This document shows positions 49,906 to 53,851 of a stretch of DNA of 64,000 bases, piece after piece. The notes beneath the pieces were generated by a model. It was not told where the DNA came from, did not search any database, and saw nothing but the letters and a program-made list of their open reading frames with translations. Numbering within the stretch: position 1 is the stretch's first letter; each line of letters begins with the position of its first letter. The position numbers were made by a program, and so were the translations under genes. Where the stretch lies: contig JBKQUP010000037.1 in NCBI GenBank assembly GCA_052325545.1, positions 240,459 through 304,458 of the forward strand, given 5' to 3'. Source of the DNA: Thermoplasmata archaeon. GTDB taxonomy: Archaea > Thermoplasmatota > Thermoplasmata > Lutacidiplasmatales > UBA184.

Positions 49906-50136
49906 CTCAAGACCTACGGCCTCGGAGACGCGGCTCCGGACGCGGGCGTTCTCCCGCGAGCCCGGTCGCTCGCAATGGCGGTCACCGTCAACCGAGACCG
50001 ACGGGGGTACCATATACGCGGCGGACGCCCGAACCAGTGAGGAGGTCCCGGAGTGCGGAGAACCCCCCCCCGGACAGCACCGTCCCGACCGAGGGCCCAT
50101 GGCCACGTGGCCCCGGAGCCCGACGAGCCCCTTCCG

Positions 50137-50802
50137 ATGGTCGAGATCGTGCTCAACGGGGTCGCCGGAGACGAATGGGTGACGGAGAGCCTGAGGTCCC
50201 AAGGCGTGGCCATCCGCCTGCTCGCTTGCCGTCCCACCCACCGAGGGCGACTTCTCCGGCTCTTTGAGGTCCAGACGAACGGGGACGGGATCGCCCCCGT
50301 GATCCGTCGTCTCCGTACCCGCTTGGCCGCTCGCGACATCGCCACGGCCAGCCTCGGCCCCGACCGGGCGCTCCTGCGAGTGTCAGTGCCGATGCCCGCG
50401 GTCTGCTCGGCCGCGTTCGACCTGGGCGACTTTTGCATCAGTTGTCCGTTCCTCGGAGAGGACGATGGCACCGGGTCGGGCTCCTGGAAGGTACTGGTCC
50501 CGCAGATCGTCGATGCGCGTCGTCTCCTCAAGGCGGCCGCGCGAAGCGGAGGACCGCGGCCGTCCCTGGTCCGGGCGGGGGCGTACCGGAGGCGCTGGAG
50601 CCTCACGGGACGTCAAGAAAGAGCGCTCCGTGTGGCGTTCCAGATCGGCTACTTTGACTACCCGCGCAAAGCCTCCCTCTCCACCCTCGCCGCCCGGCTC
50701 GGTGTCGGTCGGTCGACCGCGCTCGAGCTCCTCCGTAAGGCCACCACGAAGCTGGCGGCCGAGAGGTTCCTCGCCGAGCCACCGGTCGACCGCCCTCCCT
50801 AG
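50137..50802 (+). CDS. HTH_10 (bacterio-opsin activator-type) transcriptional regulator
   Basis: C-terminal LTGRQERALRVAFQIGYFDYPRKASLSTLAARLGVGRSTALELLRKA. Start at ATG 50137. Confidence 0.7.
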   Translation: MVEIVLNGVAGDEWVTESLRSQGVAIRLLACRPTHRGRLLRLFEVQTNGDGIAPVIRRLRTRLAARDIATASLGPDRALLRVSVPMPAVCSAAFDLGDFCISCPFLGEDDGTGSGSWKVLVPQIVDARRLLKAAARSGGPRPSLVRAGAYRRRWSLTGRQERALRVAFQIGYFDYPRKASLSTLAARLGVGRSTALELLRKATTKLAAERFLAEPPVDRPP

Positions 50803-50853: not shown

Positions 50854-51264
50854 TCACGACCGGGTCGGCGACCTCGGGTGAGCCCGCGCGCTCGGCTTCC
50901 GACGTGAGGGAGGTCGACTCCGAACTCGGTCCGTCTTCTTGGAGTCGGTCGATGCCGCCTTCCGAGGGAGGGTCCGGTTCTCCGTCACGAAGCGGTCTTT
51001 TCCGGCTTCCACGACCGCGCGAAAGATCGTCCGCATCCGCGCGGGCGACAGACCGGCCTGCTCGGCCCAGCCCTGGGCCCGAGCGATGACCCGCCGTTCC
51101 TGCGCCGGGTCCGACACCCTCCCGTTTCCTTCGCAACGGAGACGGATCGCCGCGCCAGCGGCTTCCACGCGGGCGGCCACCAGGAGGACGATGGCCCGGT
51201 CGATCTCCTCGAGGTCACGGCGGACCGAGAGCAGCGACGGAGCGACTTTCCCACGGGCGACCAT
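50854..51264 (-). CDS. chorismate mutase-like (AroQ/CM_2) domain protein with basic C-terminal tail
   Basis: LLSVRRDLEEIDRAIVLLVAARVEAAGAAIRLR...DPAQERRVIARA...MRTIFRAVVEAG follows the AroQ three-helix pattern. Some canonical catalytic positions appear substituted. Start at ATG 51264. Confidence 0.55.
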   Translation of the reverse strand: MVARGKVAPSLLSVRRDLEEIDRAIVLLVAARVEAAGAAIRLRCEGNGRVSDPAQERRVIARAQGWAEQAGLSPARMRTIFRAVVEAGKDRFVTENRTLPRKAASTDSKKTDRVRSRPPSRRKPSARAHPRSPTRS

Positions 51265-51353
51265 GCCGGCCGTCAGAGCCCGACGTGGGCCATGTTCCTT
51301 CGACCGCACTGGTGCGGGGGCCGGCTCACATACCGCTCGCCGTGTCCGGGTCG

Positions 51354-52505
51354 ATGGAAATCGTCCTGGCCTCCAATTTCGATGACCGGCTGGTCGAGGA
51401 GACCGCCGATCTCCCGGTCTCCACGTTCTTCGGTGGGTTCCCGGTGCAATTGACCGGAGGCGGCCGACCGCCCCAGATCCTCCCCCCGGTCGACCGGGAA
51501 CGGTTCCGCGCCCATCTCGAGGTGGTCCACCGGCATTCCCGTCAGTTCTTCGCCACGCTCAACAGCAACGACCTCGGGCTGAAGGAGTACGGACCGGGGT
51601 ACGTCGGTCGCCTCCTGCGAGAGGTCGGTGACCTGGTCGACCTCGGAGTGGACGGGTTCGTGATCGCCCTGCCGGCCCTGATCGAAGCGATCCGGACCGA
51701 ATGGCCGGACGTGCCCATCACGGTCTCCACGTTCGCTCGGATCCGGACCGTGACCCAGGCGGAGTACTTCCTGAAGCTCGGAGCGCGGACGATCATCCTC
51801 GAGGAGGCGAATCGGGACTTCCGGCTGATCCGCGGCCTCGTACGGCTGGGAGCGGAGGTCGAGATCCTCGTCAACCAGAGCTGCCTTCCGTCCTGCCCGT
51901 ACCGGGGCCATCACCTGAACACGAGCTCTCTCGCTTCTCAGCCGGGCGCTCCGCCCCTGGCGTTCGAGTACCCGATTCTCGAGTGCGGCCTCGAGTACGT
52001 CCGGGACCCCGCGAAAATCATCTCGGGGATCTTCGTCCGCCCCGAGGACCTCGAGGTGTTCGAAGAGGTCGGGGTCACTCGTTTCAAGGTATCCGGTCGG
52101 AACCGCTCGACCGACTGGCTGGTACGGTCCGCCCGGGCCTACGCGCAGAGGTCATATCCGGGAGACCTCGCGGATATCCTGAGCCTGGTTCAGGTGAAGG
52201 GACCCTCGGCGGCCCTGAAGCGGCTGGGAGATGGCCCGCACGGCGAGGAGGCCCGTACGCTCGCTCGGGCGTTCGCCCCGCTCTCGGAGCTGACGATCGA
52301 CAATCGGGAGTTCCCTGCGGACTTCCTCCGCCACATCGCCTCCGTGGATTGCGAACACACGACCTGCGAGGTCTGCGGGTACTGCCGCGGCGTCGCCCAG
52401 AAAGTGCTCCGGGTCTCCGGCCGCCCGGTGTCGGAGTACTCTCCGCCGTCCGACCTGCCTGCCGCGATCCGGGTCCTCCCTCAGCTCGGCGCCACCTCGA
52501 AGTGA
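51354..52505 (+). CDS. peptidase U32 family protein (RlhA/TrhP/UbiU-like putative Fe-S enzyme)
   Basis: FGGFPVQLTGGGRPPQILPPV, FFATLNSN, VNQSCLPSCPYRGHHLN and a C-terminal DCEHTTCEVCGYC. The layout matches U32 proteins of anaerobes as I recall them. Start at ATG 51354. Confidence 0.65.
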   Translation: MEIVLASNFDDRLVEETADLPVSTFFGGFPVQLTGGGRPPQILPPVDRERFRAHLEVVHRHSRQFFATLNSNDLGLKEYGPGYVGRLLREVGDLVDLGVDGFVIALPALIEAIRTEWPDVPITVSTFARIRTVTQAEYFLKLGARTIILEEANRDFRLIRGLVRLGAEVEILVNQSCLPSCPYRGHHLNTSSLASQPGAPPLAFEYPILECGLEYVRDPAKIISGIFVRPEDLEVFEEVGVTRFKVSGRNRSTDWLVRSARAYAQRSYPGDLADILSLVQVKGPSAALKRLGDGPHGEEARTLARAFAPLSELTIDNREFPADFLRHIASVDCEHTTCEVCGYCRGVAQKVLRVSGRPVSEYSPPSDLPAAIRVLPQLGATSK

Positions 52506-52646
52506 AGGACCTCGCCGTCGCCCGGTGTCGGAAAGTGCGGCAAAGGTAGCGCCCCGGAGGCGGGCTTCGGGGGCGAGATCTCGAGTTCGCCCGTCCACCT
52601 CCGGTTCCGCGTCCGGTGGGCAAGTGATCGGGCGATGCTCACCGGG

Positions 52647-53150
52647 TCACCGCGAGTCGCCGCGCCGGGAGATCCGGTGCGCAGGGGCCTGCCGGCCGAC
52701 GATGAACTGACGGACCTTCTGGGGGACGAACTCCTCGATTCCCTCCAGCCGTGCTCCGTCGGGACCCACCAGGAGGGGCAGCACGTCGTTCGGGCCGACC
52801 CATCGGTCCACGAGGCCCTGCGGCGCGGTCGCTCGGTTGGTGTCGACGACGGTGACCCTTCTCCGCTCACGACCGGCGATCCTGAGCACCATGTCAACGC
52901 ATCGAAGCTGCTGGCGGGGAAGGTGCCACGGACGGTCGACGGACTCCGAGGGTGGGGCCTCGCCCAAGCCCGGCGCGATGGCCCCTGGGGGATTCGATGT
53001 GCGAGATATGGGCATCCGCCCCCCGAACGGGAGGGCCGCGTCCACGAAACGGCCGACCACGGTGCTCTTCGTTTTCTGCAACGAGTCGACGCCCGAATCT
53101 GGCTCTCCGGCGACGAATAGCAGAAAATCGTCTTCACCGGCGGAGGACAT
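52647..53150 (-). CDS. hypothetical protein (possible thioredoxin-like fold, no CxxC)
   Basis: 167-aa ORF whose codon third positions are mostly G/C. Competing ORFs in other frames (52481..53230, 52635..53120) look less protein-like. No motif recognised. Confidence 0.35.
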   Translation of the reverse strand: MSSAGEDDFLLFVAGEPDSGVDSLQKTKSTVVGRFVDAALPFGGRMPISRTSNPPGAIAPGLGEAPPSESVDRPWHLPRQQLRCVDMVLRIAGRERRRVTVVDTNRATAPQGLVDRWVGPNDVLPLLVGPDGARLEGIEEFVPQKVRQFIVGRQAPAHRISRRGDSR

Positions 53151-53272
53151 CGTCCCAGAATCGGCCCCAGTGGCTTAAACCTCGCGGCGGAACAGATTCC
53201 GCGCACGGGGGGAATGCGAACCCGCTCCATCGCTTCGACCTGGGCCGGAACGTAGGTTCCGGCATCCGACCC

Positions 53273-53851
53273 TTATCGAAGGGCCTCTAGGATCTCGTCC
53301 GTCGTCCGTATGCGGCCGATCCGCCTGAACGCGATGTTGATCGCGGCGTGATGCATCTCCGCGGAGCTGGAGGACATCGCATCTTCGGCGAACACCTGCT
53401 GGAAACCGTACTCATAGGCGAACCGGGCCGTGCTCTCAACCCCATAGTTCGTCGATATGCCGCAGAGCACGATCGTCCTCATTCCCCGTCGTCTCAACTG
53501 CAGCTCGAGCTCGGTTCCGTAGAACGCCCCCCACTGCTTCTTCGCGATCGTTAGGTCGCCCTCTTTGGGTCCGATCTCCGGTACAAAATCCGATGCGTCG
53601 GCCGGAAGGGGGCCGCTCGGCCGCCAACCCGGGTCGTCGGATACCACATCGAGACGTTCCGCCGGTGTCGACACCACATGCACCAGGAAAACCGGCATGC
53701 CGTTCTTCCGGAACGCCTCGGCCAGCTTGGCCGCATTCTGCACCACGACCTCAGTGCTGTGCGGCGCGAACGTTCTCCCCGAGGACGCGATGCCCTTCTG
53801 AAGGTCGATCACCACCAATGCCGTGGTCTTCTTGTCTAGGTCCAACGCCAT
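53273..53851 (-). CDS. isochorismatase-family cysteine hydrolase
   Basis: TALVVIDLQKG, the catalytic-Cys region IVLCGISTNYGVESTAR, 192 aa. Confidence 0.8.
   Translation of the reverse strand: MALDLDKKTTALVVIDLQKGIASSGRTFAPHSTEVVVQNAAKLAEAFRKNGMPVFLVHVVSTPAERLDVVSDDPGWRPSGPLPADASDFVPEIGPKEGDLTIAKKQWGAFYGTELELQLRRRGMRTIVLCGISTNYGVESTARFAYEYGFQQVFAEDAMSSSSAEMHHAAINIAFRRIGRIRTTDEILEALR

Follow-up and report, generated by a model that had tools for sequence, protein, structure and literature searches.

A divergent gene pair in a 64,000-nucleotide stretch of DNA from a Thermoplasmata archaeon of the Lutacidiplasmatales (UBA184; contig JBKQUP010000037.1; the whole stretch is called the window here) codes for a small AroQ-type chorismate mutase (CM)-like protein and for a U32-family protein with seven invariant cysteines. 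Together with an adjacent regulator gene, the pair probably constitutes a three-gene module in which a dedicated CM would supply prephenate to a U32 Fe-S enzyme, itself probably a hydroxylase, under local control, and we put the probability of this reading at roughly 60%. In the scheme that we propose, the small AroQ CM would convert chorismate from the shikimate pathway to prephenate, which would be consumed by the neighbouring seven-Cys U32 enzyme as oxygen donor in an O2-independent hydroxylation with release of phenylpyruvate, by analogy with UbiU/UbiV, TrhP, and RlhA. Both genes would be controlled from one palindromic operator in their spacer, bound by the adjacent Cys4 HTH_10 regulator, an arrangement that would be fitting for a facultative inhabitant of acid soils prone to waterlogging. 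The features concerned, in window coordinates, are:

50137..50802, plus strand: gene for an HTH_10 regulator with a Cys4 N-terminal domain (Pfam HTH_10, 63.6 bits), convergent with the CM-like gene
50854..51264, minus strand: gene for a small AroQ-type CM-like protein of 136 aa (Pfam CM_2; ATG at 51264, stop at 50854, 137 codons including the stop)
51265..51353, no strand: divergent spacer of 89 bp with both promoters within (from the sequence and 20 aligned orthologous spacers)
51304..51317, no strand: palindromic candidate operator CCGCACTGGTGCGG, 14 bp (consensus CCGCACCGGTGCGG)
51354..52505, plus strand: gene for a divergent U32-family, putative Fe-S protein of 383 aa (Pfam Peptidase_U32; ATG at 51354)

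A preliminary description of this DNA had reported the two divergent open reading frames (ORFs) and their 89-bp spacer, and both ORFs and coordinates are borne out, except that the 137 residues given for the CM-like product counted the stop codon. The start codons of both genes are supported by homologues that begin at the same Met. The family assignments hold as well, with 46.6 bits against Pfam CM_2 (cut-off 27) and 45.1 bits against Peptidase_U32 (cut-off 22.4), and in profile searches each gene is the sole match to its family in the genome.

Conservation of the pair and its pathway context

With the U32 alignment, 69 loci were found in species-representative genomes, all of them metagenome-assembled genomes (MAGs), of which 68 are labelled Thermoplasmata or Thermoplasmatales and one "bacterium", at U32 identities of 58-94%. 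All close homologues belong to Thermoplasmata MAGs recovered from soil, peat, or wetland. A hidden Markov model (HMM) of the CM-like subfamily detects a divergent CM-like ORF directly upstream of the U32 gene in 62 of the 69 loci, and among the seven others there are two that have no upstream DNA. The pairing is therefore conserved among relatives far above chance, while the outer flanks change: genes for LipA, a CCA-adding enzyme, and an AmmeMemoRadiSam radical SAM protein are retained only in the closest 15-17 loci, and downstream of the U32 gene nothing is retained in more than about seven. The MAG UBA184 has the gene order of the window over the stretch from LipA to the U32 gene, with an identity of about 80%.

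Co-occurrence was examined in 60 genomes of the order, again MAGs. Members of the U32 subfamily are encoded in 31 of them, and the CM-like subfamily is present in 30 of these 31 and in none of the 29 genomes without U32. In 27 of the 31 the CM-like gene is adjacent to the U32 gene, counting one genome in which the contig ends inside U32 (G022) and one with a degenerate copy (G054). The three genomes of genus g2 have a clear CM-like member that is unlinked and situated on another contig, and in the 31st genome U32 is represented only by a 70-aa fragment at a contig edge, so that this case cannot be judged. A conservative Fisher test of the co-occurrence gives p ~1e-14, a value that overstates independence, as the genomes are related. 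Even so, a single genus contains genomes with and without the two genes in a patchy pattern, from which it follows that they were lost or gained together repeatedly. Six of the 29 genomes without U32 carry CM_2 only as part of a fusion of about 390 aa with prephenate dehydrogenase (PDH), except that one of the six (G040) has in addition a small CM of another type.

What becomes of prephenate in these organisms can be judged from the enzymes that surround it. Prephenate dehydratase (PDT; PF00800) is found in 0 of the 60 genomes, although the same search was positive in 14 of 14 control genomes. PDH occurs in 15 of the 60, at least 12 of these matches lying within a CM-PDH fusion ORF; two further fusion-like CM-PDH ORFs give no PDH_N match. 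Chorismate synthase, by comparison, is present in 56 of the 60. In the window genome, a 1.68-Mb MAG of 89% completeness, chorismate synthase is encoded beside a DeoC-family ADH-synthase-like aldolase, dehydroquinate (DHQ) synthase II, and a DHQase-shikimate dehydrogenase fusion; judged by its gene content, the organism makes chorismate via an archaeal-type shikimate pathway. A profile search detected no PDH in this genome, and nothing known among its predicted proteins converts prephenate to Phe or Tyr. Searches of the window genome by tblastn with E. coli TrpE, TrpB, TrpA, and TrpC retrieved nothing, and no TrpE/MenF-family enzyme able to make isochorismate was found with E. coli queries by the same method.

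The TyrA-like CM-PDH fusion of about 390 aa, present in about a quarter of the order (for example L082:5590-6747 in G019 and L083:5284-6444 in G021), retains the canonical Ser84 and Gln88 of the E. coli CM domain (EcCM) and occurs independently of the U32 pair. Relatives that possess this fusion, e.g., G013, G017, G018, and G025, nevertheless keep the small CM beside U32, which indicates that the small CM is not the housekeeping enzyme. Bifunctional CMs of the PheA/TyrA type thus share the CM domain family with the window protein, but the small CM has a signature of its own and tracks U32. Comparative support for a possible prephenate requirement of this U32 subfamily consists in its coupling to a CM in a lineage without PDT and PDH, and likewise in phages (see below). 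The view of the preliminary description that the CM is a dedicated supplier of prephenate for the U32 protein is strongly supported by neighbourhood, co-occurrence, and pathway context, and had to be corrected with regard to the anaerobic host, the C-terminal tail, and the residue at the Lys39 position.

As to the host, the preliminary description had spoken of an anaerobic archaeon, which does not agree with what is known of the group. Lutacidiplasmatales/TMEG, to which UBA184 belongs, have been described as living in waterlogged acid soils with an aerobic or facultatively anaerobic metabolism (PMC9287336). Cytochrome bd is represented in the window genome by subunit I (321 bits) and a probable subunit II (C26:18639-20973), about 13 kb from the shikimate gene cluster, indicating micro-aerobic quinol oxidation in a facultative host.

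Some features near the pair were considered as further module members and set aside. Besides LipA, the CCA-adding enzyme, and the AmmeMemoRadiSam gene, whose retention is limited to the closest relatives, this concerns an isochorismatase-family gene (53273-53851), which codes for a YcaC/RutB-like hydrolase and is found in only 4 of the 69 loci. The unlinked CM-like copies of genus g2 were uninformative as to context, their neighbours being genes for GNAT, K+ channel, PCNA, and KaiC-like proteins. The region 52506-53272, between the U32 gene and the isochorismatase-family gene, contains several overlapping long ORFs (e.g., 52647-53150, minus strand, 167 aa), none of which matches Pfam or NCBIfam. 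The MAG G054 has two U32 copies (L021, L046), of which one adjoins a degenerate CM-like gene devoid of the Q-E and G-K motifs, while beside the second there is no CM-like gene at all; this state may reflect decay after duplication or a mixed bin.

The small chorismate-mutase-like protein

The CM-like protein consists of a three-helix core of about 95 aa and a disordered tail of about 40 aa rich in Ser, Pro, Arg, and Lys. Its AlphaFold2 (AF2) model shows the three-helix AroQ fold (helices 11-45, 53-69, and 74-97) with a pLDDT above 90 for residues 11-97, and the top 50 Foldseek matches in the PDB are all CMs or the isochorismate-pyruvate lyase PchB, with target-normalised TM-scores up to about 0.8. 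Sequence comparison, too, places PchB near the top. All NCBIfam equivalog models score under their cut-offs, the best being TIGR01791 with 34.5 versus 66.95.

Active-site residues were surveyed in 66 members of the CM-like subfamily using EcCM numbering, and an alignment with the Pyrococcus CM agrees with the assignment. The subfamily is characterised by the signature R15, R32, R/K43, D52, Q55-E56, and G88-K89. The equivalents of Arg11' (R15) and Arg28 (R32) of EcCM are retained in 64 and 65 of the 66 members, respectively, those of Asp48 in 57 and of Glu52 in 64, and the Lys39 position (43) is always cationic, with Arg in 41 and Lys in 25 members. The Arg51 position, on the other hand, is occupied by Gln in 63 members, the Ser84 position by Gly in 60, followed by a near-invariant Lys (62 of 66), and the Gln88 position by Phe, Ala, or Tyr, with Gln occurring only once. 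The substitutions that the preliminary description had suspected in the active site are therefore genuine and conserved over the subfamily. An Arg at the Lys39 position is indeed present in the window protein, but it need not be an inactivating change, as the subfamily alternates between Lys and Arg and the key catalytic residue of the CM of Mycobacterium tuberculosis (MtCM) is Arg46 (PMC9910054). Because the carboxylate clamps and the cationic residue survive, CM activity seems likely, perhaps in dependence on a partner.

For such a dependence MtCM offers a precedent, as this AroQ-delta enzyme, which is weak on its own, is activated more than 100-fold by its partner protein (PMC9910054), DAHP synthase. 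Both MtCM and the window protein are small and of the AroQ type, and in both the catalytic cationic residue is Arg. MtCM differs, however, in keeping Arg58, the equivalent of R51, and in serving amino-acid biosynthesis, whereas the window CM has Gln in place of R51 and G-K in place of S84-V85, and its partner would presumably be the U32 enzyme. The altered mutase may even work only in complex with U32 and channel prephenate to it.

The preliminary description had also seen in the tail a nucleic-acid binder. In the window protein the tail (42 aa, 14 Lys/Arg versus 3 Asp/Glu, predicted disordered with pLDDT <50) is basic indeed. Across all 66 members, however, disorder is the constant feature and charge varies by lineage: the tails have a median length of 39 aa and contain 41% Ser/Pro/Thr/Gly, 18% Lys and Arg, and 8% Asp and Glu, and a strongly basic tail is confined to close relatives of the window genome and a few other lineages. 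A conserved nucleic-acid-binding tail was rejected for this reason, and since many tails are neutral or acidic, a role in nucleic-acid binding appears weakly founded.

The seven-cysteine U32 subfamily in archaea and phages

The match of the U32 protein to the Peptidase_U32 profile covers only positions 8-66 of 233, and more distant members of its subfamily span positions 3-231. Its AF2 model is a TIM-like barrel (pTM 0.80) with a poorly modelled Cys loop (176-211), and its best match in the PDB is the U32 protein Mk0906 (5D88, E 1.6e-7). Seven Cys are invariant in a subfamily alignment with a mean identity of 28%, namely C177-x3-C181...C211 in the core and C333-x4-C-x2-C-x2-C344 near the C-terminus; further motifs are an invariant H187 and K245-x2-G-R249. 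The latter belongs to the segment FKVSGR (244-249), which aligns to KIEGR of TrhP and RlhA and is invariant in the family alignment. The classical U32 signature (PROSITE) reads E-x-F-x2-G-[SA]-[LIVM]-C-x4-G-x-C, and UbiU, TrhP, and RlhA have the canonical Cys pattern C-x6-C-x15-C-x3-C. Neither this signature nor the four-Cys 4Fe-4S motif is present in the window protein, where E170-x-L-x3-S-C177-x3-C181...C211 contributes only three core Cys; the fourth ligand of a putative core cluster could come from the C-terminal Cys motif or be H187.

Comparison with the characterised U32 enzymes gives a graded picture. In hhalign, residues 46-150 align to E. coli TrhP with a probability of 94.7%, whereas the subfamily aligns to E. 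coli UbiU with only 47% and shows no similarity to E. coli UbiV. An HMM of the wider family scores TrhP with 58 bits, RlhA with 34 bits (in the Cys region and the K-x2-G-R motif), and UbiU with 24 bits. Among named NCBIfam models TrhP is the one that the window protein matches best, yet the score of 29.6 bits is far from the required 534, and UbiU, UbiV, and RlhA are not matched. A Pfam scan reveals neither Peptidase_U32_C nor DUF3656. The named families that match best are TrhP and UbiU; sequence comparison assigns the protein to a separate seven-Cys subfamily and makes it an orthologue of none of UbiU, UbiV, TrhP, and RlhA.

For UbiU-UbiV, oxygen-18 labelling has identified prephenate as the oxygen donor, and the proposed U32 mechanism releases phenylpyruvate from it (PMC10990095). 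Hydroxylation of tRNA U34 by TrhP (PMC6599085) and synthesis of ho5C2501 in 23S rRNA by RlhA (PMC5727448) are genetically prephenate-dependent, and trhP orthologues have been reported in bacteria only (PMC6599085). The window protein would share with the UbiU-UbiV system (with UbiT; E. coli and Pseudomonas) its nature as a U32-family Fe-S protein and an expected importance at scarce O2. In contrast to UbiU-UbiV, it is encoded by a single gene, with no heterodimer pair and no adjacent UbiT, it has C-x3-C instead of C-x6-C in the core and an additional C-terminal four-Cys motif, and while prephenate in E. coli is provided by the housekeeping PheA/TyrA, here a CM is encoded next door. TrhP (YegQ) and RlhA (YdcP), although they are the best named matches of the family, differ by the domains Peptidase_U32_C or DUF3656, which the window protein lacks, and the window gene has no RNA-related neighbour.

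An exhaustive profile search retrieved 451 clusters (50% identity) of the subfamily at E <1e-30 with near-full-length alignment. Seven-Cys members occur in Saccharolobus, Sulfurisphaera, Metallosphaera, Acidianus, Stygiolobus, Acidiplasma, Nitrososphaeria, and some bacteria. A metagenomic protein of 628 aa (P0287) is a fusion of a seven-Cys U32 to a class I SAM methyltransferase (UbiE/MenG-like, DVU_1556 family), which fits a hydroxylation followed by a methylation on a small molecule. In Sulfurisphaera tokodaii (L087), Metallosphaera sedula (L091:4636-9980), and Acidiplasma (L089) a gene for an MBL-fold protein overlaps and trails the U32 gene, which in M. sedula and Acidiplasma is also preceded by a divergent radical SAM/SPASM gene. 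The M. sedula locus, in that genome only, continues with radical SAM genes whose best NCBIfam matches, under cut-off, are AhbD/AhbC-type heme enzymes, and in S. tokodaii a UbiE-like methyltransferase gene is situated about 1.7 kb upstream. Taken as a whole, these neighbours were rejected as a clue to the substrate, as they give no clear pointer. S. acidocaldarius was positive for CM_2, PDT, and PDH in control searches; Sulfolobales possess ordinary aromatic amino-acid pathways, so that housekeeping prephenate would be available there.

Members of the same subfamily are also encoded by T4-like phages. The window protein aligns over 92% of its length, with 25% identity and an E value of 2e-19, to a phage "peptidase" of the RB69 ORF050c/gp50 type, which is found in 223 phage records, belongs to the seven-Cys subfamily, and shares its C-terminal Cys motif. 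In phage PSTCR6 (L094:4986-6595) the gene after U32 codes for a mini CM_2 protein (39.8 bits), and in phage PhAPEC2 (L093:4986-6382) a 79-aa ORF in the equivalent position has no Pfam match. The phage U32 genes sit in a cluster for glycosylated 5-hydroxycytosine DNA. As in the window, the PSTCR6 pair joins a short seven-Cys U32 to a mini AroQ CM; unlike the archaeal pair, which has no nucleotide-metabolism neighbours, the phage genes are co-directional and overlapping and lie amid nucleotide and sugar enzymes. According to these gene neighbourhoods, the seven-Cys U32 is coupled to a small AroQ in Thermoplasmata and in phages, two very distant settings, and whether this coupling has a single or a separate origin, it strengthens the functional link to prephenate. 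The phage cytosine-nucleotide modification cluster, the UbiE-like fusion, and the methyltransferase neighbour in S. tokodaii together point to a small aromatic or heterocyclic molecule as a candidate U32 substrate.

Candidate regulation and competing explanations

The HTH_10 gene, the only further neighbour that is conserved, adjoins the pair in 55 of the 69 loci, in two orientations. Its listed ORF starts with GTG at 50053, and conservation starts near Met29 at 50137. In the 55 orthologues, which are about 35-40% identical, C59, C118, C128, and C131 are invariant within an N-terminal domain that is otherwise poorly conserved and that has no match in Pfam or NCBIfam and nothing significant in a PDB sequence search. 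Possibly it represents a sensor domain of a new kind, responding to redox state or a metal or bearing an Fe-S cluster.

The spacer contains a conserved cis-element through which both genes may be controlled. The consensus CCGCACCGGTGCGG is a perfect palindrome, from which the window copy departs by one central mismatch. Distances from this copy to the start codons are 37-50 nt on the U32 side and 40-53 nt on the CM side, the palindrome being upstream of both. In 20 aligned spacers (U32 identity 64-94%) the palindrome is invariant and the remainder has diverged, and in 42 of the 69 loci it is found, with at most one mismatch, at a constant spacing from the U32 start codon (about 50 nt). Its 12-bp core CGCACNGGTGCG is unique in the 1.68-Mb genome, where three other 14-mer sites with one mismatch exist; a wider regulon was rejected because the core occurs nowhere else. 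In genus g2, where CM and U32 are unlinked, the palindrome is absent from both loci and provides no extra support for co-regulation. The Cys4 HTH_10 regulator would act on both divergent promoters via this candidate operator. Redox state or O2 is a reasonable guess for its signal, and a redox, oxygen, or metal sensor seems plausible.

Several points weigh against the module as we propose it. Three active-site contacts of EcCM (R51, S84, and Q88) are gone from the CM-like protein. The analysis is computational throughout, and the genomes are MAGs, many from one large genus, so that the co-occurrence counts are not phylogenetically independent. The match of the U32 protein to the characterised hydroxylases is partial, and its NCBIfam equivalog scores are far under the cut-offs. 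At the U32 loci of Sulfolobales and Acidiplasma (three genomes examined) there is no CM neighbour. The small mutase appears as the only recognised chorismate user of the window genome, a statement that leaves aside AroH-type CM (PF07736), MqnA-like consumers, and aminotransferases, which were not searched. Hydroxylation in vitro is still to be demonstrated for any U32 enzyme (PMC10990095), and the 5-hydroxy-dCMP synthase of RB69 is an O2-dependent thymidylate-synthase homologue, with no function given for gp50 (2026, PMC13326640).

Among other explanations, the pair might be a non-orthologous replacement of PheA, with U32 acting mainly as a decarboxylating prephenate dehydratase that provides phenylpyruvate for Phe and with hydroxylation secondary or absent. 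The lack of PDT throughout the 60 genomes of the order, the joint gain and loss of both genes, and the fact that the proposed U32 mechanism yields phenylpyruvate from prephenate (PMC10990095) would agree with this. However, two putative Fe-S sites with seven invariant Cys would be needless for a simple dehydratase-decarboxylase, and the subfamily also occurs in Sulfolobales, beside radical SAM, MBL-fold, and heme genes, and in a DNA-modification cluster of T4-like phages, surroundings that are unrelated. In addition, an amino-acid-binding domain is not recognisable in the regulator, in which a Cys4 domain accompanies HTH_10, the sole region matched by Pfam, and the half of the order without the pair would be left with no route to Phe. 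We consider a PheA replacement unlikely. We attach a similarly low probability to the CM-like protein being non-catalytic, i.e., a chorismate- or prephenate-binding adaptor or a regulatory subunit of U32, or catalysing a different pericyclic reaction, e.g., that of the isochorismate-pyruvate lyase PchB. A CM-like regulatory domain exists in the DAHP synthase of B. subtilis, the subfamily as a whole has R51 changed to Gln, S84 changed to Gly, and Q88 lost, PchB ranks with the best matches, and some sources annotate members as isochorismate pyruvate lyase; MtCM, moreover, is a weak AroQ that can depend on a partner (PMC9910054). Against this stands the retention of both carboxylate-binding Arg, of a cation at the K39 position, and of the D48 and E52 equivalents, and the window genome has neither a recognisable TrpE/MenF-family isochorismate maker nor any other CM_2 protein to supply prephenate.

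That the CM is an ordinary housekeeping mutase, its adjacency to U32 being inherited synteny without a functional link, would be in keeping with its being the only CM_2 gene of the genome. This seems very improbable to us, as there is no PDT or PDH in the window genome to use the prephenate, and as the gene is gone whenever U32 is gone (0 of 29) and is kept beside a separate CM-PDH fusion in relatives; also, the pair persists while the outer flanks vary and a candidate operator is common to both genes. Least credible of all is a collagenase-type protease unrelated to prephenate, for which the name "collagenase-like PrtC family protease" given to members by JGI might speak. The best named families are TrhP and UbiU, the seven invariant Cys point to Fe-S redox chemistry, and for a protease the link to CM in Thermoplasmata and in phages would have no rationale.

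Prephenate as an organic oxygen donor was established in 2024, and for UbiU/UbiV only (PMC10990095), within a U32 family that is mostly uncharacterised. In the searchable literature we found no mention of a CM-U32 neighbourhood. The locus described here can be regarded as a natural genetic experiment in an order without PDT, most members of which, including the host, also lack PDH, and in which the small CM has been kept only together with U32 and lost jointly with it. This joint retention provides an independent line of evidence, from evolution, that a remote archaeal U32 subfamily depends on prephenate. Our analysis defines that subfamily by its seven invariant Cys with the C-terminal motif C-x4-C-x2-C-x2-C and ties the archaeal pair to members in cultivable, genetically tractable Sulfolobales and in the model phage RB69, so that direct tests of the hypothesis are feasible. 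It is possible, and we suggest it only tentatively, that prephenate has ceased here to be a precursor of amino acids and has become a co-substrate dedicated to oxygen donation, which a redox-sensing regulator causes to be produced on demand for a single enzyme, and that the whole seven-Cys subfamily hydroxylates small aromatic or heterocyclic molecules independently of O2, driven by prephenate. If this were true, the short seven-Cys U32 proteins, with more than 450 clusters in archaea, bacteria, and T4-like phages, would represent a general class of hydroxylases.

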